A stretch of 32,000 nt of DNA from Flavobacteriaceae bacterium (GCA_965224465.1 OZ245049.1:690001-722000); one strand, 5' to 3'; positions 1 to 32,000 are shown, counted from the stretch's first letter. The notes: generated from the letters alone by a model not told the origin. Translations and numbers: made by a program.

Positions 1-727
1 ATACTTTTAATTGCTCGTGTAAGCGTTGTTCTTTGTTGCAGTTTGGATTGAACAGTTTTTCGCTTTGCTCTGTATTTGGCTTGTTGTTTCTACCTATCCC
101 TCTAAAATCGGTAATATAATCGTGAAAAGGAATTATCTGATTTGCTTCTAATTTTACTGTTCTGCTGTTCTTTCTTCTTACTCCTCCTGGGACTTTTATG
201 ATTCCTTTTTTTAGATCTAAATCTTCTAATTCTAAATTCATTAAATCTTGCTTGTCCAATGCTTGAAAAATCATTAACCCCAATAGTAGTTTATTGCTGT
301 ATTTAAAATATCCGTGTTTAGTTTTGTCTTGATAATTGGTGTAGATTTCTTGTAGTTCTTCTTCTGTTAATAAAATGATTTGCTCTTGTGCTACTCCTCT
401 TAATCTTACATTTAAAGCAATGTTTTGTATTGCTTCTGTTGAGCTATTTAAAAGACGCTGTGCGTCTAAAAAGTGGTAATAATGTTCTATTGCTCTTAAA
501 GTTGTATTGATACTTGTTTTTGATTTCTCTTGATTTTGTAAGTGTCCTATATAGTTTAATAACTGATTGTATTTTATCGTTTTCACGGTTAGTTTATTTA
601 GCTGTAACCAAATTGTAAAAAGTCCTATTCTCATTATAAAATCCTTGATACATTTTTCGCTATAAAACCTATCTGTTAGCCATTTATCAAAGGCGAGAGG
701 CTCGCTACCCAATTTATTATTTTTCAT
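1..727 (-). CDS. Second, divergent tyrosine-recombinase-like protein (313-aa type), 3' part cut by the window edge
   Basis: nt 1-992 match nt 7570-8561 (offset 7569) wherever compared. ATG at 727-725 corresponds to the start of ORF 7355-8296. It overlaps the stop of the upstream recombinase gene by 11 nt, as in the other copies. Confidence 0.85.
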   Translation of the reverse strand, partial: MKNNKLGSEPLAFDKWLTDRFYSEKCIKDFIMRIGLFTIWLQLNKLTVKTIKYNQLLNYIGHLQNQEKSKTSINTTLRAIEHYYHFLDAQRLLNSSTEAIQNIALNVRLRGVAQEQIILLTEEELQEIYTNYQDKTKHGYFKYSNKLLLGLMIFQALDKQDLMNLELEDLDLKKGIIKVPGGVRRKNSRTVKLEANQIIPFHDYITDFRGIGRNNKPNTEQSEKLFNPNCNKEQRLHEQLKV

Positions 728-1574
728 CCTGTATTAATTGGCTGTCTGCCTCAGACTCTTCAAGTATGTGCGTATAAATCTGTGTACTATCTAACCTTTT
801 ATGTCCTAAAAAATTACCAATATATTCTAACTCCATTCCTTGCTGTAAAAGATGTGTAGCAATGCTATGACGTAAACTGTGCAGGCTCGCCTGTTTTGTT
901 ATCTCTGATTTCTTCATCAAAACTTTTAACCTGTTGTTTAAATATTGTCCTGTTACTTGTGGTTTTGATTTTCCAACTAATAAATAGTTACTATTTGGAT
1001 TGATTATTTCTCTTGCAAACTCAATATATTCTTTTAAATCTGCTATTACTTTTTTACTCATTGGAACGTATCTACTTTGGTAATTCTTAGATGGTTTTAC
1101 GTAGATTAATCCTTTGTTAAAATCGAGTTCTTTGGGTTCTAAATTAATGCCTTCTTTACTTCTTAATCCGCAACCATAGTAAATACTTAGCATTGCTTTA
1201 TCAAATAAACCACTTGGACTGTGCCCATCAATTGAAGAAAAAATACTTTTAATTTCTACTTGACTAAAGATTGTTTTTTCTGTTTTTATTTCTCTTTCTA
1301 CTATAATTTTATTGACTGCTAATTTCTGTTTCTTAGTCTTTTCTAAAAAGGCACTATATCTATTTATTACGTTAATATGACCTTGTATGTATTGTCTACT
1401 CGCTTTAGTTTGATGTAGGCCTTTTATGAAGTTTTCTATCTCTTGTTGATTAGCTTTTCTTTGATTTAAGTACTTGAAAAAGTTAGCTAATAATCTTACA
1501 TATCCTTTAATGGTACTTTCTGCATAACCCAATCTAATCAACCAATTTTCAAAGTTTTCTAATTCTGTTTTCAT
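717..1574 (-). CDS. Tyrosine recombinase/integrase (XerC/D-like phage-integrase family), module 1
   Basis: ORF track, 285 aa. Motifs by eye: GCGLRSKEG (Arg-I), HSLRHSIATHLL (HxxR), LGHKRLDSTQIYTHI (His plus Tyr nucleophile). N-terminal SAM-like core-binding region. Confidence 0.9.
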   Translation of the reverse strand: MKTELENFENWLIRLGYAESTIKGYVRLLANFFKYLNQRKANQQEIENFIKGLHQTKASRQYIQGHINVINRYSAFLEKTKKQKLAVNKIIVEREIKTEKTIFSQVEIKSIFSSIDGHSPSGLFDKAMLSIYYGCGLRSKEGINLEPKELDFNKGLIYVKPSKNYQSRYVPMSKKVIADLKEYIEFAREIINPNSNYLLVGKSKPQVTGQYLNNRLKVLMKKSEITKQASLHSLRHSIATHLLQQGMELEYIGNFLGHKRLDSTQIYTHILEESEADSQLIQDEK

Positions 1575-1604
1575 AGGGGTGCCTTGCGTTTTGAGATTTG
1601 TATT

Positions 1605-1688
1605 GAGGTACTGACTTAACTTACTGATAATCTTTCAGTTTAGTTCCTCACTAAGCTAACTGAGGAACTAATGAGGTACTGAGGTACT
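1605..1688. repeat. Iteron-like GAGGTACT cluster plus 11-bp perfect hairpin spanning the stop of the type-1 primase gene
   Basis: GAGGTACT at 1605-1612, 1673-1680 and 1681-1688. Variant GAGGAACT at 1662-1669. Stem TTAGTTCCTCA (1640-1650) pairs with TGAGGAACTAA (1661-1671), with a 10-nt loop that contains the stop codon. Confidence 0.6.
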
Positions 1689-4191
1689 CGCTTTTAATAT
1701 CTTCAAGGGCTTTGTCTAAGGCATTTGTGATGTTGTCTTTCAAGTTTTGATACTCATCTTGATTGATAATTTCATACTCAAATCCTGTTCTGTACTTATT
1801 TCCGCCTATTATTTTGATATATCCGTAACTTTGCAAATCATATAAATATCTGCTTAATGTTTTGGGGTTGATTCGCATTTTGGCACGTAATTCTTTAGCG
1901 TAAAAACTTTGTGAACCACTCTTTTTTAAGTGTGCTTTCAGTACTTCCAAGAAATCCCTACACGCTTTTGTTAACTCATCACTTTTTGCCAGCAGTACTG
2001 TTTTCAATAAGGTATTCGCTTGTTCTATATCTTCAAGAGTCGTTTCAATATAGCGTTGCCCTGTCTGCTTGTCGGTGCTTACCGACCGTTGGTATTGATG
2101 ATAGAATGTTACCGTTTCTATAAATGCCAAATAATGGGTATTTGTTCTCAAGGGTTTAAAAACTGTTTCGGGAATATTTAATAGTGTAGCGTAGGGATTT
2201 ACAACTTTTACTTTCTCTAATAACCATTGTACATCTTTTAAAAACTCTTTTGATTGGCTCTCTTCTTGCTTGTTAATTTTCCCTGCTGAACTATTTTGCT
2301 GATAACTCATAATTCCCTCTTTTTGTTCTTTTGAATTGTCTAAATAAATGAGTAAACTTCTGTTGGCATTATCTTCATAAATCTTTTCTTTGGTGGTTGT
2401 TCCGGCTAAACAAATTGGGCCTTCTACTGTTAAGGTGATTGTTTTTAGGTTTCCTTTAGCATCTTTTATAGGAATGGTTTTACTTATTTTTCGTTTACTC
2501 ATTAACTCTCTGATAGCATACAAAATCTTATCGTCTTGTGCTCCGTCCAGATCTTCTATTAGTATCAATTTGTTTTTGAGTTCTGTCCTATCAAAGTAGT
2601 AAAGTGCATTTTCTGATAGTGCAGTAATTTCTAATTTATGTTCTTCTGGTATCAGGTCTGCTATTTTTTCTTGTAGGTACGTTTTTCCTGTTCCACTTGC
2701 TCCAAGACTTATAATGTGTAGCGGTTGCTCTCGTAATCTGCTTGTAAAAACTAAATACATTAACAACCGATTATCAACCTCTCCAACCATTCCAGTTTTA
2801 CCGATTAAGTCATTTGTGTTTTGTAGTAAATTTTCTCCTTTCAAAAACTCAATTGCTTTTTGTTTTCTTAGCTCTGTGAGTTCTCTTAATTTCTTCTTTT
2901 GTGGCTTCTGTGAGTCAACTTGTCTTAATCTATAATCTTCTAATCCGTTTATTAACTCTGCTATGGCGTATTGTATTTCTCTTGTTCCTAATTCTAATCT
3001 TTCGGCTACTTTTCTTGTAAATTTCTCTGTTGTATCATCATTGTATAAATCTAAATTACTTTGTCTGATATTATATATTGGACTTGGATTGTCGGTTCTT
3101 GTAATTCTTAAAGTGACTTTTAACTTGTCTAAACTAAATAGGTTTATCCCGCCTAAAACGGCTATTAGAATATTATTGTTTTGGTAAGTGATGTAATCTT
3201 GGTTTTCTGTGTTCAGCTCGTTACTTACTGGTTCTGTCTGCTCTGTTACAAATTCAGTTTCTGAGCCAAATAGGTTTTCTCTTTCACTTATTAAATGTTC
3301 TAAAATTGTAAGTTCGTGGCTCTGTACTAAACTATTTATATCTTCTCCTTGCGGACAATTAATTTTACTGATGCTTAGATTGTTGAATAGTTGATTTAAT
3401 GTTTTAGAATGTTCTTGTATTGCTTTTTCACCTGCTTCATCTCCATCAAAGAAAAGTACAACTTCTTTTAAATTTTCTAACTTTAATAATGCTTGTTTGT
3501 GTTCTTCAGTTAGTCCATTTGTTCCAAACAAAGCAAGTGTTTCAAAGTTGGTGTATTTCTGAAGTGTGGCACTATCAATTATACTTTCTGTTAATATTAT
3601 TACTTGCGTTTCTTTGTGTGGATATTTTGGATAAAGTCCTTTTCTGTTAGCTGTATAGTAGTGCGTTCCTGTTTTTGCTATATTTCTACCGTATAGACTT
3701 ACAATTTCGTTTTGTTCGTTTTTTAAAGGGTAAATTATACAGTTTTTGAGTTGTTTAAAGTGAGTTCCATTATTATATCCTTGTTCTAATTTCACATCAT
3801 AGATTCCTCTTTCTTCTAAATACGTTATTGCTTTTTTTGTTCTGTGTAGGCTTTGTTTGAATTTCACAAATAGCTCTGAGTAGTTAATTTCTTCCTGTAT
3901 TTCTGTTGTTGCTTTGGTTGGTTTTATTTCTGCAGTACCGATTAATTCCTTTGCTTTTTTCAATGCTTTATGTTTGGTACATTTTTCAATGTCTTGAATA
4001 AACTGTATTACATCTCCTGTTTTATCACAACCAAAACAAGTGTAAGTATTCGTTTCGGGGTAAATTCTTAAACTTGGTTTATCATCTTTATGGAAAGGAC
4101 ACAAACAATGCTTGTTTTTGTTGATTGAGATATTGTACTCACTTAGCACTGTTGTTATTTGCAATTGTTTTTTAATCTCTGTTATCTCCAT
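1651..4191 (-). CDS. Primase-helicase-like replication protein (CHC2 Zn finger + TOPRIM + P-loop NTPase + C-terminal wHTH-like tail, tail type 1)
   Basis: ORF track, 846 aa. Motifs by eye: CPFHKDDKPS...CFGCDKTGD (DnaG-type CHC2 finger), LTESIIDS and FFDGDEAGEKA (TOPRIM E and DxD), GASGTGKT (Walker A), LILIEDLDG (Walker B). Confidence 0.9.
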   Translation of the reverse strand: MEITEIKKQLQITTVLSEYNISINKNKHCLCPFHKDDKPSLRIYPETNTYTCFGCDKTGDVIQFIQDIEKCTKHKALKKAKELIGTAEIKPTKATTEIQEEINYSELFVKFKQSLHRTKKAITYLEERGIYDVKLEQGYNNGTHFKQLKNCIIYPLKNEQNEIVSLYGRNIAKTGTHYYTANRKGLYPKYPHKETQVIILTESIIDSATLQKYTNFETLALFGTNGLTEEHKQALLKLENLKEVVLFFDGDEAGEKAIQEHSKTLNQLFNNLSISKINCPQGEDINSLVQSHELTILEHLISERENLFGSETEFVTEQTEPVSNELNTENQDYITYQNNNILIAVLGGINLFSLDKLKVTLRITRTDNPSPIYNIRQSNLDLYNDDTTEKFTRKVAERLELGTREIQYAIAELINGLEDYRLRQVDSQKPQKKKLRELTELRKQKAIEFLKGENLLQNTNDLIGKTGMVGEVDNRLLMYLVFTSRLREQPLHIISLGASGTGKTYLQEKIADLIPEEHKLEITALSENALYYFDRTELKNKLILIEDLDGAQDDKILYAIRELMSKRKISKTIPIKDAKGNLKTITLTVEGPICLAGTTTKEKIYEDNANRSLLIYLDNSKEQKEGIMSYQQNSSAGKINKQEESQSKEFLKDVQWLLEKVKVVNPYATLLNIPETVFKPLRTNTHYLAFIETVTFYHQYQRSVSTDKQTGQRYIETTLEDIEQANTLLKTVLLAKSDELTKACRDFLEVLKAHLKKSGSQSFYAKELRAKMRINPKTLSRYLYDLQSYGYIKIIGGNKYRTGFEYEIINQDEYQNLKDNITNALDKALEDIKSEYLSTSLVPQLA

Positions 4192-4221
4192 AATTTATTA
4201 TTTGACTTGTAACACATATTG

Positions 4222-4229
4222 CAAATGTA
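4222..4229 (-). promoter_or_regulatory. Candidate -7 box (TACATTTG on the minus strand) for the primase operon
   Basis: Matches TAnnTTTG, about 30 nt upstream of the primase ATG (4191). It is surrounded by ACATAT(T) half-site repeats at about 4212-4255, which are possible XRE operators. Confidence 0.4.
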
Positions 4230-4299
4230 TAATATATGTTTTAAAAACATATTAATTTTGGAGTTTATTTTTGATATTGACTAAATAATCATATTTAAC

Positions 4300-4307
4300 T
4301 ACCTTTG
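4300..4307 (+). promoter_or_regulatory. Candidate Bacteroidota -7 promoter box (TACCTTTG) for the XRE gene
   Basis: Matches TAnnTTTG, 20 nt upstream of ATG 4328. Confidence 0.45.
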
Positions 4308-4327
4308 TTGTGTTATAAAACAATAAA

Positions 4328-4690
4328 ATGAACATAGGAAAAAGAATAAAGCAAATAAGAACCTCTAAGAAGCTTTCTCAAAAAGAATTAGCTCTTTCTA
4401 TCGGGATAGACCAAGGACAATATAGTAGAATGGAAAACGGAAAAGTAGAGCCTACTTTATCTTCTTTAGAGAAAATAGCAGAAGCTTTGAGTATTAAAAT
4501 TGCGGAACTCTTTGACGAAAACGAACCTATTGATGTTAATAGTTATGATAAAAGTATAGTGGAAAGATTACGCCTTTTAGACCAATTAGAAGAAACAGAA
4601 AAGGCTTCTATCTTTAACATTATTGATATGGCTATTACTAAGAAACGCTTGAAAGACACGCTTTCTAATGCGTTAAATGGAACTATGTGA
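4328..4690 (+). CDS. XRE/Cro-C1-type HTH transcriptional regulator, divergent from the primase gene
   Basis: ORF track, 120 aa. N-terminal HTH (KKLSQKELALSIGIDQGQYSRMENGK). The C-terminal helical part is shared with the other module regulators (LRLLDQLEETEK..IFNIIDM). Confidence 0.85.
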   Translation: MNIGKRIKQIRTSKKLSQKELALSIGIDQGQYSRMENGKVEPTLSSLEKIAEALSIKIAELFDENEPIDVNSYDKSIVERLRLLDQLEETEKASIFNIIDMAITKKRLKDTLSNALNGTM

Positions 4691-4702
4691 TGTTTTATGA
4701 AT

Positions 4703-5476
4703 TTAAGAAACTTCATCTTTCAAAAAATCATAAGGTATTTCATAATTATCTAAAGGGTCAATAGGTAATATTTCTTTTGGAATAAGCGGAGAGTTAACTT
4801 CTACTTCTAAACCTTGCCTCCAAGCTAATTTTGCATAACCTAATGCAGGCTGAGAAACATATTTATTTAAAACTGCATTATCATTTCTCTTTTTATGAAT
4901 TTTAGGACTAACTAACTCCTCTAAAAGTTCCTCACATTTAGATTCATCTTTTGACAAAAGAGCTTTGTAAAATTCATAATCGATTTTTAACTCTTGTTGA
5001 TTCTTTGGTAATTTGGGCAGTGTTAAAGTTTCAATGATGTTTAGGTTTCTTTCTATTCCTTGAGTATCGTTAGCCATAAAAAACTGAATTGTATTACACC
5101 AAATAGCACTTTCGCCTTGCAATATCATTTCATCCATTGACAACTCTGAATTCTCACTTTTTTGATAGCGCAATTTTGAATACTGTTGAATTAATTGCTC
5201 GTTATCACTTAATATAGGATAACACACATTAGGTAATCCAAAATCGAATAATCTATCATTAAATTTATCTATTCTTAATTTATCTAAAAGAGTTGCATTA
5301 TAAAAATATTGCCTACTGTTTTCATTCATCATTAAAGAATAAATAGCAATATCGTATTCCATAAATCTAAAATTAAGAGCAACTTTATTCAGGTTAGATT
5401 TATCATTAATAACAAGACTTAACAATTTATCTTTTCGATTTAAAGCACGCTCTATCTTCTCCTTTAACTTTATCAT
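4703..5476 (-). CDS. Putative immunity protein for the upstream toxin (family not recognised)
   Basis: ORF track, 257 aa. ATG lies 2 nt after the toxin stop, which suggests translational coupling. No signal peptide visible. The call rests on position only. Confidence 0.5.
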   Translation of the reverse strand: MIKLKEKIERALNRKDKLLSLVINDKSNLNKVALNFRFMEYDIAIYSLMMNENSRQYFYNATLLDKLRIDKFNDRLFDFGLPNVCYPILSDNEQLIQQYSKLRYQKSENSELSMDEMILQGESAIWCNTIQFFMANDTQGIERNLNIIETLTLPKLPKNQQELKIDYEFYKALLSKDESKCEELLEELVSPKIHKKRNDNAVLNKYVSQPALGYAKLAWRQGLEVEVNSPLIPKEILPIDPLDNYEIPYDFLKDEVS

Positions 5477-5478
5477 AA

Positions 5479-6189
5479 TTAGAAGTTTGCTAATTTTATA
5501 AAATTAATCTCTCCAGTTGTCTTATCTACTACAGCAACATATTTCTGTATTGAACCATTAGATGCTGATATAATAGCATCAGCAGTTTGTTGTTTCAAAC
5601 CTCCAAGTCCGTCTAATTTATCTGTTGCAACATAATTTATCCAGTTATCACTCATTTGAGAAGGAAGACCTGTGTTTGTATTTGGTCCACTTAAAGATGC
5701 TGAACCACTTGAAGACATTTGTTTGCTTTCAATAATAATTATCTCTGAAGGGTTATCAATTCCACCTTTATAATATATACCATCATATCCATTGACACCA
5801 TTTGCTCCATAATATTTACCATCTGCTATTTGATATCCTTGTCCAGTCATAATATCATCTACTAATCCTTCTGTCTTAGCTCCTAAATTATCTCCATTTA
5901 CAATAATATCATCAACTACATTCTTTGCAGAACTTCCATTTGTTGGTGTTATCTTATAAGCATCATTCCAAAGTGTTTTTCCAATGTTAGTCTTATTTGC
6001 TCCTCCTGGTATTTTAGCTGTAATATTCTTAAATGATGAAAGACTAAACCAGTTACTCCCTGCGTTAGCCAATTCTTCAAGCCTTTCACTACTTTTTTCA
6101 ATTGAAAAAAAAGTGTCGTTTGCACTTAAATTGAGTGTCGAAAAAACACTAAGTACAACAATTAGGAATATTTTAAATAAGCTGTTCAC
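5479..6189 (-). CDS. Secreted polymorphic toxin, body type A (possible PD-(D/E)xK-like nuclease)
   Basis: ORF track, 236 aa with a GTG start. The leader NSLFKIFLIVVLSVFSTLNLSA|NDTFFSIEKSS..EELAN is shared with the other toxins. The body contains YDGIYY...IIIIESK, read by eye as D...ExK; the nuclease call is weak. Confidence 0.65.
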   Translation of the reverse strand: MNSLFKIFLIVVLSVFSTLNLSANDTFFSIEKSSERLEELANAGSNWFSLSSFKNITAKIPGGANKTNIGKTLWNDAYKITPTNGSSAKNVVDDIIVNGDNLGAKTEGLVDDIMTGQGYQIADGKYYGANGVNGYDGIYYKGGIDNPSEIIIIESKQMSSSGSASLSGPNTNTGLPSQMSDNWINYVATDKLDGLGGLKQQTADAIISASNGSIQKYVAVVDKTTGEINFIKLANF

Positions 6190-6764
6190 GGATTACAAAG
6201 ATAGTTGATTTCTTAGTTTTTGTTTTTCTTCAATTGAAAAAAAAATAAACACAAAGTTTAAGGCTTGATTTTTTGTAATTAATGCCTTATCGAAATTTTC
6301 ATTTTTTAGAATAATGCTCTATGGCATTGATTATAAAAAATGAGCATCCAAGGGGTTTGGGGAATGGAAGATTCCCCATATAAATAAATCCTGCGTAGCA
6401 GACCTATTATTTTTTTTGTGCGGTTGGGAGCGTTGGATGTGTGGCTATTTTGCATAATACCAGTTATAACTACCTGGAGTTTTTCACGCAAGAGTATTAT
6501 AACTTGTATTATGTTACTTAGCTTGGGGTGGTTTTTATGGCGGATTTTTTGCTTTTGTGCGGTGGCACAGCTCTTTGGATTTTCTTTTTTTCAATTGAAA
6601 ATAAAAACGATAAAAAAGAAAATACAATGTGCTGTTTTTGCGGTGGGTTGCAGAAAGTGTGACATAAAAACCACAGAAGGGTTGGCGTGCGGAACAACAT
6701 AAAGCACAAAGGCTTTTTGCTTTTTCTGCAAAAGTTTGGGTTTTATGTTGTGGGGATTGGTCGG
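6065..6764 (-). repeat. Leader + junction region, allele A
   Basis: Conserved between all module boundaries. T-run-CAATTG-A-run palindromes at 6093-6112 (inside the leader CDS), 6229-6238 and 6590-6599. GGGGAAT-GGAAG-ATTCCCC hairpin at 6359-6377. (G)TGCGGT(T)GG repeats at 6418-6427, 6557-6565 and 6639-6646. Confidence 0.8.
6453..6513. repeat. 17-bp inverted repeat (CATAATACCAGTTATAA / TTATAACTTGTATTATG) with a 27-nt loop
   Basis: Arms at 6453-6469 and 6497-6513, complementary at 16 of 17 positions. The loop sequence is unrelated to the other copies and lacks the CAATTG palindrome. Confidence 0.75.
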
Positions 6765-7043
6765 TTATTTCTCTCCATAATGAGAATGTGCATTTAGTAC
6801 ATAAACTGTAACTATTTCTTCATTTATAGAATACACTAATCGGTGTTTATGGTTGATTCTTCTTGAATACAATCCTTTTAAATTATGTTTCAACATTTCG
6901 GGTTGTCCTGTTCCTGTTGTTGGGTGTTCCATTAATTCAGTTAATAATTTCTGTAACTTCTTTAAAATTGATTTATCTCCTACTTTTTTATGTTTCTCAA
7001 TATCTTCTAAAGCGGTTTTAGAAAATTCTAATTTATAACTCAT
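6765..7043 (-). CDS. yoeB: YoeB/Txe-family toxin (RelE superfamily mRNA interferase)
   Basis: ORF track, 92 aa. GQPEMLKHNLKGLYSRRINHKHRLVYSI closely resembles E. coli YoeB [28 protein letters not shown]. It overlaps the antitoxin stop by 4 nt. Confidence 0.88.
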   Translation of the reverse strand: MSYKLEFSKTALEDIEKHKKVGDKSILKKLQKLLTELMEHPTTGTGQPEMLKHNLKGLYSRRINHKHRLVYSINEEIVTVYVLNAHSHYGEK

Positions 7044-7291
7044 AAACCTAATAATTCACTTATTTCTTTAGGTGTAGAAATGGTTTTTGTTTCTCCATTT
7101 TGAACTTCTAAAACGCTTTGTTGAATACGTTCTATCATCTTTGCATTAAAGTACATATCGTTCTCACTAACAAGAGTTAATGCATACGATTTATCTTTCC
7201 CCCTTTGAACAATTATATACTCTCCTTTATCTACTCTTTCGAAGTATTCTTTTTGATTTTGTCTAAATTCTCTACTGCTTATAACTAACAT
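7040..7291 (-). CDS. Phd/YefM-family antitoxin
   Basis: ORF 7040-7354 trimmed to the internal ATG at 7291 (MLVISSREFRQNQKEYFERV...), which resembles the YefM N-terminus (ISYSEARQNL). The upstream 21 codons overlap a palindromic operator-like site and look non-coding. Confidence 0.75.
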   Translation of the reverse strand: MLVISSREFRQNQKEYFERVDKGEYIIVQRGKDKSYALTLVSENDMYFNAKMIERIQQSVLEVQNGETKTISTPKEISELLGL

Positions 7292-7306
7292 AATATCATA
7301 TTTTGT

Positions 7307-7321
7307 GTACCAATATGGTAC
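7307..7321. promoter_or_regulatory. Perfect palindrome GTACCA-ATA-TGGTAC upstream of the antitoxin gene (candidate YefM/YoeB operator)
   Basis: 6-bp arms with a 3-bp spacer, 16 nt upstream of ATG 7291. Type II TA operons are typically autoregulated at such palindromes. Confidence 0.55.
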
Positions 7322-7354
7322 AATATACAAATAAATAAGCAAAAAGTATTCCAT

Positions 7355-8296
7355 TTACCCTAAAGGATGAAACATTTCTATTTGTTTACTCAAATTCTTC
7401 ATGTCTTTATTACGGTACTTTTCTATATTTCCAACATTTTTATAACCGCTTAAATATTGGGTTTTTCTTAATCCAAATAAATCTATCCAAATGCCTATTC
7501 TTGATTGTTTGAGTTGAGTTAATCTTTTAATGTTTATTGTTGGATTCTGCTCCTTTATGGTTTTTACTAATACTTTTAATTGCTCGTGTAAGCGTTGTTC
7601 TTTGTTGCAGTTTGGATTGAACAGTTTTTCGCTTTGCTCTGTATTTGGCTTGTTGTTTCTACCTATCCCTCTAAAATCGGTAATATAATCGTGAAAAGGA
7701 ATTATCTGATTTGCTTCTAATTTTACTGTTCTGCTGTTCTTTCTTCTTACTCCTCCTGGGACTTTTATGATTCCTTTTTTTAGATCTAAATCTTCTAATT
7801 CTAAATTCATTAAATCTTGCTTGTCCAATGCTTGAAAAATCATTAACCCCAATAGTAGTTTATTGCTGTATTTAAAATATCCGTGTTTAGTTTTGTCTTG
7901 ATAATTGGTGTAGATTTCTTGTAGTTCTTCTTCTGTTAATAAAATGATTTGCTCTTGTGCTACTCCTCTTAATCTTACATTTAAAGCAATGTTTTGTATT
8001 GCTTCTGTTGAGCTATTTAAAAGACGCTGTGCGTCTAAAAAGTGGTAATAATGTTCTATTGCTCTTAAAGTTGTATTGATACTTGTTTTTGATTTCTCTT
8101 GATTTTGTAAGTGTCCTATATAGTTTAATAACTGATTGTATTTTATCGTTTTCACGGTTAGTTTATTTAGCTGTAACCAAATTGTAAAAAGTCCTATTCT
8201 CATTATAAAATCCTTGATACATTTTTCGCTATAAAACCTATCTGTTAGCCATTTATCAAAGGCGAGAGGCTCGCTACCCAATTTATTATTTTTCAT
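7355..8296 (-). CDS. Second, divergent tyrosine-recombinase-like protein (313-aa type)
   Basis: ORF track. SAM-like N-terminal region (TSINTTLRAIEHYYHFL). The C-terminal region aligns by eye to the first recombinase, but the Arg-I position reads D (QALDKQDL), GH is GY, and the terminal Tyr is kept (NIEKY). Confidence 0.8.
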   Translation of the reverse strand: MKNNKLGSEPLAFDKWLTDRFYSEKCIKDFIMRIGLFTIWLQLNKLTVKTIKYNQLLNYIGHLQNQEKSKTSINTTLRAIEHYYHFLDAQRLLNSSTEAIQNIALNVRLRGVAQEQIILLTEEELQEIYTNYQDKTKHGYFKYSNKLLLGLMIFQALDKQDLMNLELEDLDLKKGIIKVPGGVRRKNSRTVKLEANQIIPFHDYITDFRGIGRNNKPNTEQSEKLFNPNCNKEQRLHEQLKVLVKTIKEQNPTINIKRLTQLKQSRIGIWIDLFGLRKTQYLSGYKNVGNIEKYRNKDMKNLSKQIEMFHPLG

Positions 8297-25203: not shown

Positions 25204-25237
25204 ACTCTAAAATATTTGGTTGTTAATTTCAACACCA

Positions 25238-25245
25238 CAAATATA
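25238..25245 (-). promoter_or_regulatory. Candidate -7 box (duplicate of 18575-18582)
   Basis: Offset 6663. Confidence 0.4.
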
Positions 25246-25318
25246 AAATATAGTTTCGATAATAAAAACATAAATGTTTTTTAAATCAATACATTTTTGA
25301 TAATATTTCTATTTAAGC

Positions 25319-25326
25319 TACTTTTG
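25319..25326 (+). promoter_or_regulatory. Candidate -7 box (duplicate of 18656-18663)
   Basis: Offset 6663. Confidence 0.4.
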
Positions 25327-25330
25327 TGTT

Positions 25331-25696
25331 ATGGATTTAGCAGAAAACATTAAAGCAATTAGAGAAGAAAAGGGTTTAAAACAGATTGAAGTAGCTGATT
25401 ATATTGGTGTTGATAAATCCGCTTATAGTAAAATTGAAAAAGGTTCTCGTTCTTTGGCTATTGAGGAACTTCAAAAAATGGCACAGCTCTTTAATCTGAC
25501 TACTGACCAAATTCTTAACTATGATGGTAACATACCTAAAGAGGTAACCATTGAAGATAAAACCGCAGTAGAGCAAATGAGGTTGATACAAGAATTAGAT
25601 GAAGAGGATAAACAAACTGTCTTTAAAATAATTGATAAGATGCTTACTACTAAGAAATTTAAAGACTTCTTTAATAAAAATGTAGCTACGCTTTGA
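25331..25696 (+). CDS. XRE/Cro-C1-type HTH regulator (duplicate)
   Basis: Translation identical to 18668-19033. Confidence 0.85.
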   Translation: MDLAENIKAIREEKGLKQIEVADYIGVDKSAYSKIEKGSRSLAIEELQKMAQLFNLTTDQILNYDGNIPKEVTIEDKTAVEQMRLIQELDEEDKQTVFKIIDKMLTTKKFKDFFNKNVATL

Positions 25697-25792
25697 TTTT
25701 TATTTAGAATAAATATAAATTAAGTGTTTCTTACGATACAGTAAATATGCCTTATAGGTAGCAAATGTGCTATATAGGTGTCAAAGTTATTT

Positions 25793-26233
25793 TTAAGATA
25801 ATTCGTTAAAGGAATTTTCATCTATAATAGTTTTTCCATCAACAAGAAGTAGCGCATTCAAATGATTTGCCATTTTAAAAAAAATGTTTAAATCTTCTAA
25901 TTTAGGAGTTCGTTCAAAATTTATACTTATCCAATTATTCCTTGAACTAAATCCTACATTAATATCATAATACCCTTTTTTGTCATTAAACTCAGCATAA
26001 CAACTAACCTTATTTAAACTACCTAAAACACGCTCTCTGAAACCTTCTGGAACATTATCTATATCCTTTAGTATTTCTATGCCATCTTTAGTATTTTCTT
26101 TCCAAATAAACTCACTCAAATGACTCTCAACAAAATCTACCCATTTTTCATAGTTTAAGGGTAATGACTGAGTAAATACATCATCAATTGTGTTTATTGC
26201 TATTCTTAAATCTGTATTTCGGCTTAGTTTCAT
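25793..26233 (-). CDS. Putative immunity protein (duplicate)
   Basis: Translation identical to 19130-19570. Confidence 0.55.
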   Translation of the reverse strand: MKLSRNTDLRIAINTIDDVFTQSLPLNYEKWVDFVESHLSEFIWKENTKDGIEILKDIDNVPEGFRERVLGSLNKVSCYAEFNDKKGYYDINVGFSSRNNWISINFERTPKLEDLNIFFKMANHLNALLLVDGKTIIDENSFNELS

Positions 26234-26889
26234 TAGTTTATAAAATCTTCAAGTGCTTTAATTTCAAAAGTTATATCAGGATCAACTGTATTAAGTTTAT
26301 TCATCCATTCCGTTTTCAATGTTGGCGTTATACTGGCTTTAGGCATATAGACATCAATTTTAGCATTTGTAATAAACATTGTTTTCCCATTGCTCACGAG
26401 ACCTGTTGAAGGGTCTAGACCTTCTTTTAGAAATTTAATATTTTTCTGCATTGGTGCTGACGCTAACCAAGTATCAACATTTGTTGAAATAGTCGTTTTC
26501 ATAGAAACAGCTGTATTTGCAAAAATTTGATTTGCTGTTTCTGTCCCTTTGTAAAAATCGATTCCTTTAAAGTTAAATGATATATCTCCTGTATGAAGCC
26601 ACCCAGATGATTTAGTGTAACGATATTGTCCCATTACATCTTCAAAGAAACTTCTACCACCTAACATATCAGGTATAGGATATTTCGTTTTCCAAATATC
26701 GTCTATGTGTTTAAGCTTATCAGATAAGGACTTGCTAATGAAGCCAGCCAAATCATCCACCGTATTAGCCAATTCGTCAACACTATCACTACTTTTTTCA
26801 ATTGAAAAAAAAGTGTCGTTTGCACTCAAATTTAGTGTCGAAAAAACACTAAGTACAACTAATAGAAATATTTTAAATTGATTACTCAC
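26233..26889 (-). CDS. Secreted polymorphic toxin, body type C behind a different leader allele
   Basis: The body is identical to 19570-20226 up to ..VDDLAGF. The leader differs (FFSIEKSSDSVDELANT vs FFSTEKSSNSVEELANS). ORF-track entry 26233-27027 is trimmed to the conserved GTG at 26889. Confidence 0.65.
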   Translation of the reverse strand: MSNQFKIFLLVVLSVFSTLNLSANDTFFSIEKSSDSVDELANTVDDLAGFISKSLSDKLKHIDDIWKTKYPIPDMLGGRSFFEDVMGQYRYTKSSGWLHTGDISFNFKGIDFYKGTETANQIFANTAVSMKTTISTNVDTWLASAPMQKNIKFLKEGLDPSTGLVSNGKTMFITNAKIDVYMPKASITPTLKTEWMNKLNTVDPDITFEIKALEDFIN

Positions 26890-27496
26890 AGATGACAAAG
26901 GTAACAGTTTTCTTAGTTTTTCTTTTTCTTCAATTGAAAAAAAATAAACGCAAGATTTTAAGGCTTGATTTTTTGTAATTAATGCCTTGTCGAATTTTTT
27001 GTTTTTTAGAAGAATGCTTCTTGGCATTGATTACAAAAAATGAGCATCCAAAGGGGTTTGGGGAATGGAAGATTCCCCATATAAATCAATCCTGCGTAGC
27101 AGACTTATTATTTTTTTGTGCGGTGGGGAATGGTGGAAGTGTGGCTATTTTGCATAATACCAGTTATAACGACCTTTTTTTTCAATTGAAAATCAATTAA
27201 TAAAGTCAAAAAAATGTGCGTAGCGAACTTATAACTTGTATTATGTTACTTAGCTTGGGGTGGTTTTTATGGCGGATTTTTTGCTTTTGTGCGGTGGCAC
27301 AGCTCTTTGGATTTTCTTTTTTTCAATTGAAAATAAAAACGATAAAAAAGAAAATACAATGTGCTGTTTTTGCGGTGGGTTGCAGAAAGTGTGACATAAA
27401 AACCACAGAAGGGTTGGCGTGCGGAACAACATAAAGCACAAAGGCTTTTTGCTTTTTCTGCAAAAGTTTGGGTTTTATGTTGTGGGGATTGGTCGG
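26765..27496 (-). repeat. Leader + junction region, allele D (chimeric; right part identical to allele A)
   Basis: Palindromes at 26793-26812 (inside the CDS), 26929-26938, 27181-27190 and 27322-27331. Hairpin at 27060-27078. GTGCGGTGG at 27118-27126 and 27289-27297, and TGCGGTGG at 27371-27378. Confidence 0.8.
27153..27245. repeat. Same 17-bp inverted repeat with a 59-nt loop (third loop allele, contains CAATTG)
   Basis: Arms at 27153-27169 and 27229-27245. Confidence 0.75.
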
Positions 27497-27775
27497 TTAT
27501 TTCTCTCCATAATGAGAATGTGCATTTAGTACATAAACTGTAACTATTTCTTCATTTATAGAATACACTAATCGGTGTTTATGGTTGATTCTTCTTGAAT
27601 ACAATCCTTTTAAATTATGTTTCAACATTTCGGGTTGTCCTGTTCCTGTTGTTGGGTGTTCCATTAATTCAGTTAATAATTTCTGTAACTTCTTTAAAAT
27701 TGATTTATCTCCTACTTTTTTATGTTTCTCAATATCTTCTAAAGCGGTTTTAGAAAATTCTAATTTATAACTCAT
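27497..27775 (-). CDS. yoeB: YoeB/Txe-family toxin (second copy)
   Basis: Translation identical to 6765-7043 (offset 20732). Confidence 0.88.
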   Translation of the reverse strand: MSYKLEFSKTALEDIEKHKKVGDKSILKKLQKLLTELMEHPTTGTGQPEMLKHNLKGLYSRRINHKHRLVYSINEEIVTVYVLNAHSHYGEK

Positions 27776-28023
27776 AAACCTAATAATTCACTTATTTCTT
27801 TAGGTGTAGAAATGGTTTTTGTTTCTCCATTTTGAACTTCTAAAACGCTTTGTTGAATACGTTCTATCATCTTTGCATTAAAGTACATATCGTTCTCACT
27901 AACAAGAGTTAATGCATACGATTTATCTTTCCCCCTTTGAACAATTATATACTCTCCTTTATCTACTCTTTCGAAGTATTCTTTTTGATTTTGTCTAAAT
28001 TCTCTACTGCTTATAACTAACAT
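27772..28023 (-). CDS. Phd/YefM-family antitoxin (second copy)
   Basis: Identical to 7040-7291. Trimmed to the internal ATG in the same way. Confidence 0.75.
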   Translation of the reverse strand: MLVISSREFRQNQKEYFERVDKGEYIIVQRGKDKSYALTLVSENDMYFNAKMIERIQQSVLEVQNGETKTISTPKEISELLGL

Positions 28024-28038
28024 AATATCATATTTTGT

Positions 28039-28053
28039 GTACCAATATGGTAC
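28039..28053. promoter_or_regulatory. Same palindrome, second copy
   Basis: Offset 20732 from 7307-7321. Confidence 0.55.
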
Positions 28054-28086
28054 AATATACAAATAAATAAGCAAAAAGTATTCCAT

Positions 28087-29028
28087 TTACCCTAAAGGAT
28101 GAAACATTTCTATTTGTTTACTCAAATTCTTCATGTCTTTATTACGGTACTTTTCTATATTTCCAACATTTTTATAACCGCTTAAATATTGGGTTTTTCT
28201 TAATCCAAATAAATCTATCCAAATGCCTATTCTTGATTGTTTGAGTTGAGTTAATCTTTTAATGTTTATTGTTGGATTCTGCTCCTTTATGGTTTTTACT
28301 AATACTTTTAATTGCTCGTGTAAGCGTTGTTCTTTGTTGCAGTTTGGATTGAACAGTTTTTCGCTTTGCTCTGTATTTGGCTTGTTGTTTCTACCTATCC
28401 CTCTAAAATCGGTAATATAATCGTGAAAAGGAATTATCTGATTTGCTTCTAATTTTACTGTTCTGCTGTTCTTTCTTCTTACTCCTCCTGGGACTTTTAT
28501 GATTCCTTTTTTTAGATCTAAATCTTCTAATTCTAAATTCATTAAATCTTGCTTGTCCAATGCTTGAAAAATCATTAACCCCAATAGTAGTTTATTGCTG
28601 TATTTAAAATATCCGTGTTTAGTTTTGTCTTGATAATTGGTGTAGATTTCTTGTAGTTCTTCTTCTGTTAATAAAATGATTTGCTCTTGTGCTACTCCTC
28701 TTAATCTTACATTTAAAGCAATGTTTTGTATTGCTTCTGTTGAGCTATTTAAAAGACGCTGTGCGTCTAAAAAGTGGTAATAATGTTCTATTGCTCTTAA
28801 AGTTGTATTGATACTTGTTTTTGATTTCTCTTGATTTTGTAAGTGTCCTATATAGTTTAATAACTGATTGTATTTTATCGTTTTCACGGTTAGTTTATTT
28901 AGCTGTAACCAAATTGTAAAAAGTCCTATTCTCATTATAAAATCCTTGATACATTTTTCGCTATAAAACCTATCTGTTAGCCATTTATCAAAGGCGAGAG
29001 GCTCGCTACCCAATTTATTATTTTTCAT
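28087..29028 (-). CDS. Second, divergent tyrosine-recombinase-like protein (313-aa type), third copy
   Basis: Translation identical to 7355-8296. Confidence 0.8.
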   Translation of the reverse strand: MKNNKLGSEPLAFDKWLTDRFYSEKCIKDFIMRIGLFTIWLQLNKLTVKTIKYNQLLNYIGHLQNQEKSKTSINTTLRAIEHYYHFLDAQRLLNSSTEAIQNIALNVRLRGVAQEQIILLTEEELQEIYTNYQDKTKHGYFKYSNKLLLGLMIFQALDKQDLMNLELEDLDLKKGIIKVPGGVRRKNSRTVKLEANQIIPFHDYITDFRGIGRNNKPNTEQSEKLFNPNCNKEQRLHEQLKVLVKTIKEQNPTINIKRLTQLKQSRIGIWIDLFGLRKTQYLSGYKNVGNIEKYRNKDMKNLSKQIEMFHPLG

Positions 29029-29881
29029 CCTGTATTAATTGGCTGTCTGCCTCAGACTCTTCAAGTATGTGCGTATAAATCTGTGTACTATCTAATCTTT
29101 TATGACCTAAAAAATTACCAATATATTCTAACTCCATTCCTTGCTGTAAAAGGTGTGTCGCTATACTGTGGCGTAAACTGTGCAGTGTTGCATTTTTATT
29201 AATGTTTGCCTTATTCATTAACTTCTTTAATCTACTGTTTAAATATTGACCTGTTACTTGTGGATTTGATTTCCCAACTAATAAATAGTTACTTTCTGTA
29301 TTGATTATCTCCCTTGCAAACTCAACATATTCTTTTAAATCTGCTATTACTTTTTTACTCATTGGAACGTATCTACTTTGATAATTCTTACTTGGTTTGA
29401 CATAAATTAATCCTTTGTTAAAGTCTAATTCTTTTGGTTCTAAATTAATACCTTCTTTACTTCTTAATCCACAACCATAGTAGATACTTAGCATTGCTTT
29501 ATCAAATAAACCACTCGGACTGTGCCCATCAATTGAAGAAAAAAGTTGTTGTATTTCTAATTGATTAAAGATTACTTTTTCTGTTTTTATTTCTCTTTCT
29601 ACTATAATTTTATTGACTGCTAATTTCTGTTTTTTGGTCTTTTCTAAAAAGGCACTGTATCTATTTATTACGTTAATATGACCTTGTATATATTGTCTAC
29701 TGGCTTTGGTTTGATGCAAGCCTTTTATAAACTCTTCTATCTCTTGTTGATTAGCTTTTCTTTGATTTAAGTACTTGAAAAAATTAGCTAATAACCTTAC
29801 ATATCCTTTGATGGTGCTTTCTGCATAGCCTAATCTAACTAACCAATTCTCAAAGTTTTCTAATTCTTCTTTTAAATTCAT
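29018..29881 (-). CDS. Tyrosine recombinase/integrase, module 5 (mosaic)
   Basis: ORF track, 287 aa. The C-terminal tail matches modules 1 and 2 (EESEADSQLIQDEK). The N-terminal two-thirds resemble modules 3 and 4 (EKVIFNQLEIQQLFSSIDGHSPSG). Confidence 0.9.
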   Translation of the reverse strand: MNLKEELENFENWLVRLGYAESTIKGYVRLLANFFKYLNQRKANQQEIEEFIKGLHQTKASRQYIQGHINVINRYSAFLEKTKKQKLAVNKIIVEREIKTEKVIFNQLEIQQLFSSIDGHSPSGLFDKAMLSIYYGCGLRSKEGINLEPKELDFNKGLIYVKPSKNYQSRYVPMSKKVIADLKEYVEFAREIINTESNYLLVGKSNPQVTGQYLNSRLKKLMNKANINKNATLHSLRHSIATHLLQQGMELEYIGNFLGHKRLDSTQIYTHILEESEADSQLIQDEK

Positions 29882-29924
29882 ATTTAAAATTTAGGGGGGT
29901 GCCTTGCGTTTTGAGATTTGTATT

Positions 29925-30008
29925 GAGGTACTGACTTAACTTACTGATAATCTTTTAGTTTAGTACCTCGCTAAGCTAACTGAGGCACTAATGAGGTACT
30001 GAGGTACT
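29925..30008. repeat. Same iteron-like cluster at the second type-1 primase gene
   Basis: GAGGTACT at 29925-29932, 29993-30000 and 30001-30008. Inverted copy AGTACCTC at 29962-29969. Variant GAGGCACT at 29982-29989. The hairpin is imperfect here. Confidence 0.55.
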
Positions 30009-32000
30009 CGATTTAATATCTTCAAGGGCTTTGTCTAAGGCATTTGTGATGTTATCTTTTAGATTTTGATACTCATCTTGATTAATTACCTCATACTCAA
30101 ATCCTGTGCTGTACTTGTTTCCGCCTATTATTTTGATGTAACCGTAACTTTGTAAATCATATAAATACCTGCTTAATGTTTTGGGGTTAATTCGCATTTT
30201 AGCACGTAATTCTTTAGCATAAAAACTTTGCCCATTTCCCTTTTTTAAGTGTGCTTTCAGCACTTCCAAAAAATCTCTACACGCTTTTGTCAACTCATCA
30301 CTTTTGGCAAGTAATACCGTTTTTAGTAGCTTATTAGCTTGTTCTATATCTTCCAATGTCGTTTCTATGTATTTTTCTCCAGTAGTTTCATTTATTTTTA
30401 TTTGCCTCTGCCGCTGGCAGTAAAATGTTACCGTTTCTATAAATGCTAAATAATGGGTGTTTGTTCTTAATGGCTTAAAAACTGTTTCGGGGATATTTAA
30501 TAGTGTAGCGTAGGGATTGACAACTTTTACTTTCTCTAATAACCATTGTACATCCTTTAAAAATTCCCTGGCATTATTTTCTTCTTGCTTGTTAATCTTT
30601 CCTGCCGATATGTTTTGCTGATAGCTCATAATTCCCTCTTTTTGTTGTTTACTGTTGTCTAAATAGATTAATAATGAACGGTTTGCATTGTCTTCATAAA
30701 TCTTTTCTTTGGTAGTTGTTCCTGCTAAACAAATTGGTCCTTCTACGGTTAGGGTTACTGTTTTTAGGTTTCCTTTTGCATCTTTTATAGGTATGGTTTT
30801 ACTTATTTTTCGTTTACTCATTAGTTCTCTTATAGCGTACAGTATCTTATCATCTTGTGCTCCATCCAAATCTTCAATTAATATCAATTTGTTTTTTAGT
30901 TCTGTTCTGTCAAAGTAGTAAAGTGCATTTTCTGATAGTGCGGTGATTTCTAATTTATGTTCTTCAGGGATTAAGTCTGCTATTTTTTCTTGTAGGTAAG
31001 TTTTTCCTGTGCCGCTTGCTCCAAGACTTATAATATGTAGCGGTTGTTCTCGTAATCTACTCGTAAAAACCAAATACATTAACAGCCGATTATCGACCTC
31101 TCCAACCATTCCCGTTTTACCGATTAAATCATTTGTCTTCCGGAGTAGATTTTCGCCTTTTAAAAAGGTAATTGCTTTTTGTTTTCTTAGCTCTGTTAAT
31201 TCTCTTTGTTTCTTTTTTTGTGGTTTTTGAGCATCAACTTGTCTTAATCTGTAATCTTCTAATCCGTTTATGAGTTCTGCTATTACGTATTGTATTTCTC
31301 GTGTTCCTAATTCTAATCTTTCTGCTACTTTTCTTGTAAATTTCTCTGTTGAATCATCATTGTATAAATCTAAATTACTTTGTCTGATATTATATATTGG
31401 ACTTGGATTATCTGTTCTTGTAATGCGTAAAGTAACTTTTAGCTTGTCTAAACTGAACAAGTTTATCCCACCTAAAACGGCTATTAAAATGTTGTTGTTT
31501 TGGTAAGTGATGTAATCTTGGTTTTCTGTGTTCAGCTCGTTACTTACTGGCTCTGCCTGCTCTGTTACAAATTCAGTTTCTGAACCAAATAGGTTTTCTC
31601 TTTCACTTATTAAATGTTCTAAAATTGTAGGTTCGTGGCTCTGTACTAAACTATTTATATCTTCTCCTTTCGGACAATTAATTTTACTTATTGATAGATT
31701 ATTGAATAGTTGGTTTAGTGTTTTAGAATGTTCTTGCACTGCTTTTTCTCCCGCTTCATCTCCATCAAAGAAAAGTACAACTTCTTTTAAATTTTCTAAT
31801 TTTAATAATGCTTGCTTGTGTTCTTCAGTAAAGCCATTTGTTCCATATAAAGCAAGTGTTTCAAAGTTGGTGTATTTCTGAAGTGTGGCACTATCGATTA
31901 TACTTTCTGTTAAAATGATTACTTGCGTTTCTTTGTTTGGGTATTTTGGATAAAGTCCTTTTCTGTTAGCTGTATAGTAGTGCGTTCCTGTTTTGGCTAT
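29988..32000 (-). CDS. Primase-helicase-like replication protein (tail type 1), 5' end beyond the window
   Basis: The ORF track starts at an internal GTG (31739). My translation of 31740-32000 in the same frame is open and reads IAKTGTHYYTANRKGLYPKYPNKETQVIILTESIIDSATLQKYTNFETLALYGTNGFTEEHKQALLKLENLKEVVLFFDGDEAGEKAVQEHS, colinear with the other copies. The gene therefore continues past nt 32000. Confidence 0.88.
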   Translation of the reverse strand: MAKTGTHYYTANRKGLYPKYPNKETQVIILTESIIDSATLQKYTNFETLALYGTNGFTEEHKQALLKLENLKEVVLFFDGDEAGEKAVQEHSKTLNQLFNNLSISKINCPKGEDINSLVQSHEPTILEHLISERENLFGSETEFVTEQAEPVSNELNTENQDYITYQNNNILIAVLGGINLFSLDKLKVTLRITRTDNPSPIYNIRQSNLDLYNDDSTEKFTRKVAERLELGTREIQYVIAELINGLEDYRLRQVDAQKPQKKKQRELTELRKQKAITFLKGENLLRKTNDLIGKTGMVGEVDNRLLMYLVFTSRLREQPLHIISLGASGTGKTYLQEKIADLIPEEHKLEITALSENALYYFDRTELKNKLILIEDLDGAQDDKILYAIRELMSKRKISKTIPIKDAKGNLKTVTLTVEGPICLAGTTTKEKIYEDNANRSLLIYLDNSKQQKEGIMSYQQNISAGKINKQEENNAREFLKDVQWLLEKVKVVNPYATLLNIPETVFKPLRTNTHYLAFIETVTFYCQRQRQIKINETTGEKYIETTLEDIEQANKLLKTVLLAKSDELTKACRDFLEVLKAHLKKGNGQSFYAKELRAKMRINPKTLSRYLYDLQSYGYIKIIGGNKYSTGFEYEVINQDEYQNLKDNITNALDKALEDIKSSTSVPH

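Follow-up and report, generated by a model that had tools for sequence, protein, structure and literature searches.

Tandem units carrying primase and recombinase genes meet inside toxin genes in a Flavobacteriaceae bacterium and point to a probable integrative element targeting the delivery/toxin boundary

A stretch of 32,000 nt from a Flavobacteriaceae bacterium (GCA_965224465.1 OZ245049.1:690001-722000, hereafter the window) consists of an array, running past both ends, of five co-oriented units of 6.7-7.4 kb that lie head to tail. The units meet inside toxin genes at an invariant in-frame 8-mer, TTGGCTAA (Leu-Ala-Asn), which is present at 4/4 unit boundaries. We propose that every unit represents an integrative element, probably one that replicates itself, with its attachment site at the boundary between the delivery and toxin parts of polymorphic toxin genes, a reading to which we assign a probability of about 0.6. 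The proposal builds on the anatomy of the units, the in-frame switch point, the combinatorial joining that takes place there, the anchoring of related arrays to big toxin genes and the conservation of the layout across phyla.

Self-alignment of the window and ORF (open reading frame) calls bear out five co-oriented units with recurring primase stops, as claimed in a first-pass annotation made from the sequence. In each unit, read on the minus strand, a C-terminal toxin tip (CT) is followed by an immunity gene, a divergent XRE regulator, a primase-ATPase, a tyrosine recombinase, a recombinase paralogue, an optional YoeB/YefM pair, a junction and a leader. All long ORFs except the regulators lie on the minus strand; the primase ORFs end there at 1651, 9247, 15961, 22624 and 29988, and the reading frame of the fifth is intact up to the window edge. 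Pfam profile searches upheld the gene identities first proposed (primase, recombinase, paralogue, YoeB/YefM, XRE), with matches to Zn_ribbon_DnaG and Toprim, HTH_3 regulators, Imm49, a WHH nuclease toxin, SUKH immunity and, in units B and E, YoeB/YefM; all gene calls were confirmed by Pfam, NCBIfam and PHROGs. The backbone is conserved yet mosaic, as had been noted, with 81-91% identity between units over backbone and junction. The claim of three toxin types in cargo that differs between modules also held: self-comparison found no homology between the cargo regions at 4200-6064, 11804-13430 and 18541-20093, and the region at 25204-26756 repeats the third. This unrelated DNA comprises the CT, the immunity gene, the XRE gene and the XRE-primase intergenic region, so that the regulator and its operator region belong to the cargo alongside toxin and immunity.

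Inter-unit homology on the toxin side stops directly after GAATTGGCTAA, which encodes E-L-A-N in the toxin ORF. The junction had been placed inside a toxin gene; a toxin ORF does span it, and the position can now be refined to the defined in-frame core. Units C and D go beyond similarity, being identical at 6,661/6,663 nt; the sole difference is the 2 nt directly 3' of the core (26763-26764 in unit D), where three successive cores carry TA, CT and TA. Heteroduplex left behind when a tyrosine recombinase exchanges strands would fall at this dinucleotide, and in our view simple unequal crossing-over would not yield such a pattern. The units and cores are as follows.

1-6064, minus strand: unit A, cut by the window start
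6065-6072, minus strand: core TTGGCTAA (Leu-Ala-Asn), switch point between unit B leader and CT_A
6073-6764, minus strand: unit B leader and junction
13439-13446, minus strand: core TTGGCTAA between unit C leader and CT_B, next 2 nt TA
13447-20101, minus strand: unit C
20102-20109, minus strand: core TTGGCTAA between unit D leader and CT_C copy 2, next 2 nt CT
20110-26764, minus strand: unit D, genes at unit C coordinates + 6663
26765-26772, minus strand: core TTGGCTAA between unit E leader and CT_C copy 1, next 2 nt TA
26773-32000, minus strand: unit E, cut by the window end

The array might also have arisen by tandem amplification of one chromosomal segment, from an integrated plasmid multimer or as an assembly artefact, followed by divergence. 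The near-identity of units C and D agrees with such an origin, as do the perfect tandem duplicates common in relatives (L029, L041, L043, L045, L083 and L086; L numbers designate loci and contigs throughout), but the cargo regions are non-homologous, the backbones differ by 9-19%, the source genome encodes at least seven distinct primase variants and the same arrays are present in independent long-read assemblies. Furthermore, the 2-nt difference between units C and D rules out a read artefact through collapse or duplication. We consider this origin very improbable. Since identical neighbouring units are frequent in relatives, they suggest multimer integration or repeated re-integration after replication.

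We pooled core sites from the window and its close relatives, with flanks of at least 60 nt, and found 18 TTGGCTAA junctions. At these, 14 unrelated CTs are combined with 6 N-terminal modules that are likewise unrelated: the leader, three giant genes, a lipoprotein-like short module 'NCCNFSE..GGLAN' and one other. Three independent cases place the same CT DNA behind different N-terminal modules, with the switch exactly at the 8-mer: the WHH CT in the L044 giant gene versus window leader B, the CT 'KAGGSF' in the L080 giant gene versus the L080 and L074 leaders, and L001 at position 1014 versus 8232. The core codons are invariably TTG GCT, which from window codon usage has a probability of 0.025 given Leu-Ala; finding them by chance in five further independent modules has a probability of about 9e-9. 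Because the core codons are invariant against this codon usage, the constraint acts on DNA. A metagenome scan with the leader palindrome described below supplied 13 extra contexts. We also observed extra short toxin genes in the cargo of close relatives, each with a lipoprotein-like N-terminal module whose CT switches at the same TTGGCTAA (L080 6066-6980; L082 4893-5795 and 6234-7217; L074 1183-2697; L076 680-1618), so that a single unit can contain as many as three toxin/immunity pairs.

Homologues of the primase number more than 2,400, most of them from Bacteroidota, and we compared 69 genomic loci. The XRE/primase/recombinase/paralogue backbone is present in 69/69, and tandem copies are common. 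Where the upstream flank is not itself a unit, it is always a large co-oriented ORF that ends 0.3-1.5 kb before the XRE gene. These ORFs encode polymorphic toxins (RHS/DUF6443, LRR, SprB-repeat with a CDI-EC869-like CT, fn3 with WHH, EndoU), and such a gene heads the array in L013, L021, L023, L030, L031, L036, L038, L040, L041, L044, L051, L064, L073 and L080. Their pre-CT sequence recurs just after the degenerate recombinase and junction. Among the relatives, those closest to the window, with 78-88% primase identity, have giant ORFs that continue through ...LAN into the CT of the first unit and measure at least 1,502 aa (L073), at least 1,592 aa (L080) and 1,670 aa (L044). The window array is probably not free-standing, since the arrays of these three relatives begin at a giant polymorphic toxin gene that ends in the first unit's CT; the window is therefore best read, by sequence comparison, as the 'orphan tip' region of a polymorphic toxin locus. 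No genes of an integrative and conjugative element (ICE) or prophage were found within 10 kb in about 20 relatives, in support of the first reading.

Other lineages have short cores of their own. Aquimarina L003 has a different 16-nt core common to the EndoU toxin gene and the leader toxin across the element, and L006 has a 20-mer core in the same position; RHS-linked orphans by the junction start at a fixed point at the end of the RHS core (NYYPFGLEIPG in L013, WNHFELREYD in L064). Among side observations, the Cytophagales metagenome-assembled genome CBDDKZ01 (L045, L046, L041, L059) has a primase-helicase that is split or lacks TOPRIM and still forms tandem units of 8-9.7 kb.

These comparisons bear on whether the array is an ordinary orphan toxin/immunity array, as known for Rhs and CDI (contact-dependent inhibition) loci, that is reshuffled by homologous recombination, with the primase-recombinase units being unrelated selfish elements that have a chance preference for these loci and play no part in tip exchange. 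Such an explanation is consistent with the 130-390 nt of pre-CT homology carried by orphans in L021, L031, L036, L040 and L064, some of which have no adjacent backbone, and with the mosaic backbone expected under frequent homologous exchange. In the window's lineage, however, giant genes and leaders have only 8-16 nt in common, which is too short for ordinary homologous recombination. In addition, the backbone-adjacent orphan starts at one fixed position per lineage, and the backbone is placed identically relative to the tip across five classes and two phyla. We therefore regard reshuffling by homologous recombination as unlikely.

A layout of this kind, with a big toxin gene, tip, immunity, XRE, primase, recombinase(s), a short toxin fragment and then a displaced tip, is also found in Chitinophagia, Cytophagia and Saprospiria, in Ralstonia and at rhs loci of E. 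coli. The gene order is the same on an Aureispira plasmid and on Aureibacter pAT2, where the main genes are RHS genes and the tandem units are identical, and on a Ralstonia megaplasmid. It occurs as well at the vgrG-rhsE locus of E. coli, and in strain EC77 the main rhs is separated from pptA by five to six units. Among complete E. coli genomes, 60/5,426 have 1-6 copies, all chromosomal, and the rhsE loci are mostly element-free. E. coli R12 carries a single copy: behind an intact rhs, whose tip is in frame, come immunity, SymE, XRE, primase, XerC and the junction, downstream of which lies an 85-nt RHS fragment with the displaced tip. Homology between the main gene and the orphan starts exactly at GAYCCGATAGGGCT, the DPIGL codons at which the enterobacterial core lies, and this locus shows the state that the model predicts for a single insertion. 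A SymE-family gene stands by the XRE gene in every unit of the proteobacterial cousins (L087/L089 from E. coli EC77, L084, L088), and some of their tips contain an inserted ISEc1 (ISAs1, known classically as the rhs 'H-repeat').

Two circular 'plasmids' have been deposited that consist of units: a Lonsdalea record of 11,289 bp holds two, with the primase-helicase-type protein as its only replication-type gene, and a Shigella record of 8,758 bp holds one and is colinear with a single period of the arrays in E. coli. We dropped the idea that relative contigs of 5-8 kb are free plasmids after a circularity test, and regard them as fragments broken at repeats.

A repressor, a primase-helicase, an integrase, a size of 6-8 kb and tandem stacking are traits of phage satellites (the phage-inducible chromosomal islands, PICI, P4 or the VEIMEs, integrative mobile elements that are encapsidated in virions) and vesicle-borne tycheposon-like elements, which might have integrated serially at one site with the toxin position incidental and the cargo a benefit to the host. 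Marine satellites of similar size are packaged as concatemers (PMC9618062), and tycheposons stack at one attachment site. Against this, Pfam and PHROGs found no capsid, terminase-small-subunit, AlpA or excisionase genes and matched only primase, integrase and regulator, IMG/VR scans (with a single protein, and by alignment) found no relatives, and phage records match the primase domain only. The window has no tRNA or tmRNA in its 32 kb; nor does it hold relaxase, transfer, capsid, terminase or transposase genes, in agreement with the first reading of it. Because the target is conserved across phyla, the toxin gene is not an incidental target, and we hold a satellite or tycheposon origin to be improbable.

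The junction comprises about 600 bp of conserved non-coding DNA. By inspection, the leader has a Sec-type signal peptide and a Bacteroidota-type -7 box (TAYMTTTG, read from the Bacteroidota motif) 6 nt ahead of a GTG start; a sigma-70 promoter scan scored no higher than shuffles. The longer toxin ORFs of the first listing give way to this GTG, where homology puts the start. A perfect palindrome in the leader, TTTTTTCAATTGAAAAAA, encodes 'FFSIEK'. This palindrome occurs 13 times in the window against 0.85 expected, is confined to junctions and leaders and has the same position in Chitinophagaceae relatives. We rejected the palindrome as sole crossover site because main-gene junctions have none, and keep it as a candidate arm or origin site. 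Every junction also retains an inverted repeat of 25-26 nt with a spacer of 27-59 nt, sometimes containing a third palindrome copy, a candidate for an origin, a cruciform or an arm site of the recombinase, and an invariant hairpin, GGGGAATCTTCCATTCCCC, followed by a T-rich stretch downstream of the recombinase or toxin-antitoxin genes, which may be a terminator. Rfam had no match in 5400-14300, one unit with its junctions and the only region searched. The junction features are listed here.

6073-6189, minus strand: unit B leader coding region, signal peptide, TFFSIEKS
6186-6203, minus strand: unit B -7 box and GTG start
6096-6107, 6228-6239 and 6589-6600: palindromes TTTCAATTGAAA of the unit B junction and leader
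6444-6469/6497-6521: unit B inverted repeat
13806-13831/13889-13913: unit C inverted repeat
20469-20494/20552-20576: unit D inverted repeat
27144-27169/27229-27253: unit E inverted repeat
6359-6377 (unit B), 13722-13740, 20385-20403 and 27060-27078: hairpin GGGGAATCTTCCATTCCCC
13447-14153, minus strand: unit C leader and junction
26773-27496, minus strand: unit E leader and junction

The recombinase pair and the primase are kept throughout the relatives. The primase-ATPase is 846-867 aa long; its N-terminal half resembles DnaG structures (2au3, E 1.6e-15), and its C-terminal half, a P-loop ATPase that ends in a winged helix, matched MCM/AAA+ proteins weakly in a fold search. A PDB sequence search with the ATPase half gave no match. 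The same architecture has been named 'Prim-Hel' (Kawano et al. 2007, PMC1891008). Full-length homologues with 25-36% identity occur on plasmids; the plasmid collection PLSDB had no DNA match to the window, and searching plasmid and phage collections with DNA gave nothing useful. For the C-terminal winged-helix region, at least three alternative types of sequence exist in proteins otherwise 80-90% identical (in the window at the primase C-termini 1651-~2000, 9247-~9600 and 15961-~16300, and in proteins P0002-P0014), and these suggest an exchangeable DNA-binding, perhaps origin, specificity.

The intact tyrosine recombinase (283-287 aa, Phage_integrase E 1e-36) has the complete R/HxxR/H/Y set. 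It is overlapped by the paralogue (293-313 aa), whose Phage_integrase match is weak and which in every lineage has lost the first catalytic Arg and the His of HxxR and kept the Tyr; from this loss, the paralogue is probably a non-catalytic partner.

Two toxin-immunity pairings were found, WHH with SUKH and a CT without a named domain with Imm49. The third toxin type, CT_C, has no Pfam match, and one relative of its family has a PT-HINT pretoxin domain; WHH, ART, Tox-SHH and Fic domains are attached to the leader in other proteins. We rejected a link between XRE type and CT type because the XRE_A type in L001 and L073 accompanies other CTs. In unit B the SUKH immunity gene lies on the opposite strand in an operon with XRE and converges on the toxin gene with a 4-nt overlap (11953-12757), unlike units A, C and D, where the immunity gene is placed after the toxin. 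The space from the degenerate recombinase to the junction is a second, accessory cargo slot, occupied by YoeB/YefM in the window (6765-7354 and 27497-28086), by ORF6N in L003 (14452-14970), by Fic and DeoR-HTH in L078 (773-1870) and by RelE/DinJ in Lonsdalea (L084 29-630). The genes are as follows.

1-~727 (cut), minus strand: degenerate recombinase, unit A
717-1574, minus strand: predicted active recombinase, unit A
1651-4191, minus strand: primase-AAA+, unit A
4328-4690, plus strand: XRE_A
4703-5476, minus strand: Imm49 immunity, unit A (Pfam)
5479-6064, minus strand: CT_A, without a named domain, paired with Imm49; toxin ORF 5479-6189
6765-7043, minus strand: YoeB toxin, unit B accessory slot (Pfam)
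7040-7354, minus strand: YefM antitoxin, unit B accessory slot, likely start 7291 (Pfam)
7355-8296, minus strand: degenerate tyrosine-recombinase paralogue, unit B
8286-9149, minus strand: tyrosine recombinase, unit B, XerC/D-like, full R..HxxR..H..Y
9247-11796, minus strand: primase-helicase, unit B, with CHC2 zinc ribbon, DnaG core/TOPRIM, P-loop AAA+ and C-terminal winged helix
11953-12300, plus strand: XRE_B, divergent from the primase
12308-12757, plus strand: SUKH/SMI1-KNR4 immunity, unit B, divergent from the primase, co-oriented with XRE_B
12754-13438, minus strand: CT_B, WHH (HNH/EndoVII) nuclease domain; full toxin ORF 12754-13563
14154-15035, minus strand: degenerate recombinase, unit C
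15011-15862, minus strand: recombinase, unit C
15961-18540, minus strand: primase, unit C
18668-19033, plus strand: XRE_C
19130-19570, minus strand: immunity, unit C
19570-20101, minus strand: CT_C; toxin ORF to 20226
27497-27775, minus strand: YoeB, unit E
27772-28086, minus strand: YefM, unit E
28087-29028, minus strand: degenerate recombinase, unit E
29018-29881, minus strand: recombinase, unit E
29988-32000+, minus strand: primase, unit E

In the model that we propose, each element would span from one TTGGCTAA core to the next on the minus strand, and XRE would repress the divergent primase-recombinase operon. Upon derepression, the recombinase pair would excise a circle on which leader, core and the element's own CT form an intact small toxin gene, and the primase/AAA+ protein would replicate this circle. 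By integrating at the core within a resident toxin gene, the element would then bring its CT and immunity gene into frame behind the N-terminal part already there. The old CT, now displaced, would gain the leader arm of the element, with its promoter and signal peptide, and because of this gain the old immunity gene is proposed to stay expressed. With repeated integrations, units would accumulate head to tail on the downstream side of the main toxin gene and give the array seen in the window. Serial integration of elements with an integrase and a primase is thus the most economical origin of the array, which retains that part of the tandem accretion suggested at first. Catalysis by these recombinases, excision, replication and intercellular transfer are the inferred parts of this model.

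Several points weigh against an integrative, self-replicating element. The units encode no transfer function, and no circular form, empty site or excision junction of the window's lineage was seen. Of 40 small relative contigs tested for circularity, 1/40 has a terminal overlap, and the Lonsdalea and Shigella records might be by-products of assembling tandem repeats instead of excised circles. The AlphaFold model of the ATPase half has low confidence (pLDDT 40-50). The TA/CT/TA pattern needs heteroduplex resolution or two events, and some homology breakpoints lie at palindromes and not at the core (L065, L069), which leaves the true crossover site uncertain. In several lineages the main gene and orphans have 130-390 nt in common, so homologous recombination could do the swapping there. 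The window's own array ends fall outside the window, and the L065 array adjoins accB-accC-pdxA and is headed by a 388-aa leader-type toxin with no giant gene. Two details of these loci may be added: in L065 (4302-7660) junction homology begins directly after the pdxA stop, at the position of the second palindrome, and the 388-aa first toxin has an extra segment of 130 aa; the single overlapping contig, L048 (8,161 bp), has a 20-nt terminal overlap that may reflect a circle or a coincidence.

A wider and more tentative reading, which we think somewhat less probable than not being the case, is that cross-phylum self-replicating 'toxin-tip replicons' are the general vehicle of C-terminal displacement in Rhs and non-Rhs toxins. 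New killing domains and their immunity genes would arrive as small circles and be spliced in frame at a coding core, while the displaced tip would be re-armed with a leader and the old immunity gene kept expressed. Any core-to-core segment could be excised and re-inserted, and cassettes without a backbone could be mobilised in trans, in what would be an integron-like system acting on protein C-termini.

By analogy, the array resembles an orphan-tip array combined with a tycheposon-style stack and may be shufflon-like in outcome. With Rhs/CdiA orphan arrays (PMC2935791, PMC3150448), the arrays of relatives have in common that displaced tips and their cognate immunity genes follow one another downstream of a full-length toxin gene; a conserved motif in the coding sequence also defines the switch point, and the orphans of relatives keep a pre-toxin piece. 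Here, in contrast, each tip brings a repressor, a primase-helicase and two tyrosine recombinases, the sequence in common is only 8-16 nt in this lineage, and displaced tips gain a promoter and a signal-peptide leader. Classical 'C-terminal displacement' (Jackson 2009, PMC2935791; Poole 2011, PMC3150448) has been attributed to homologous recombination with no vehicle named. Tycheposons (Hackl et al., 10.1101/2020.12.28.424599) are likewise small and cargo-carrying, with a tyrosine recombinase and primase/helicase, and their successive integrations at one site move older elements inward; they differ in having tRNA/tmRNA targets and metabolic or defence cargo in cyanobacteria and other plankton, whereas here the target lies inside a toxin ORF, the protein would be rebuilt in frame and there are no partial tRNA boundaries.

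PICI/P4 satellites and marine VEIMEs (PMC9618062) have a comparable divergent repressor/replication switch, integrase, small size and concatemeric states, but here there are no packaging or interference genes, no apparent link to a helper and no matches in viral collections. VEIME is an operational definition, with concatemers recovered from purified virions (PMC9618062). Shufflons (Rci, PilV C-termini) and invertible tail-fibre switches also exchange C-termini in frame and site-specifically at short coding sites, but they invert resident segments and have no replicon, whereas we propose integration and excision of circles that bring segments from outside. The rAID-1 system that Ross is said to have reported in 2019 is reportedly an integron-like array, mostly of immunity genes, headed by one recombinase in Bacteroidales, with no primase. 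Here the whole backbone is repeated per unit and the toxins are complete. Both rAID-1 and polyimmunity loci with XerC/D (the latter in Zhang 2012, PMC3482391) similarly place tyrosine recombinases beside arrays of immunity genes and toxin fragments in Bacteroidota. The likeness to PICI/P4, tycheposons and rAID drawn in the first-pass annotation goes no further than resemblance; the features that define them (packaging genes, tRNA targets and the immunity-only arrays of Bacteroidales) are absent.

Kawano 2007 (PMC1891008) noted Prim-Hel/cHTH/SymE neighbourhoods near haemagglutinin and RHS genes, and Steele 2017 (PMC5727410) noted Rhs-associated integrases of untested function in bee-gut bacteria. 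These are probably proteobacterial cousins of the window element, whose gene order is repeated in Lonsdalea, Ralstonia and E. coli; they were presented as gene neighbourhoods only, with no element, attachment site, tip-swapping model or arrays defined. Apart from these passing 2007/2017 mentions we found no description of the element in literature whose coverage leaves out many subscription papers. The element was first put forward as undescribed, which agrees with this search, but its kind is not confined to one genome and reaches E. coli.

For the precise in-frame gain of killing domains by polymorphic toxins (Rhs, CDI-like and others), neither a vehicle nor an enzyme is known, and descriptions have gone no further than 'C-terminal displacement'. 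What emerges from the array and its relatives is a concrete candidate for this machine: an element of small size that brings recombinases and a replication protein of its own and is directed at the boundary of delivery and toxin parts. If true, this would explain orphan-tip arrays, tie mobile-element biology to interbacterial warfare and predict rapid, reversible switching of toxin specificity within populations. It would also constitute a natural system of in-frame protein-domain swapping, for which the cultured E. coli cousin R12, with its single intact copy, offers a tractable experimental system.

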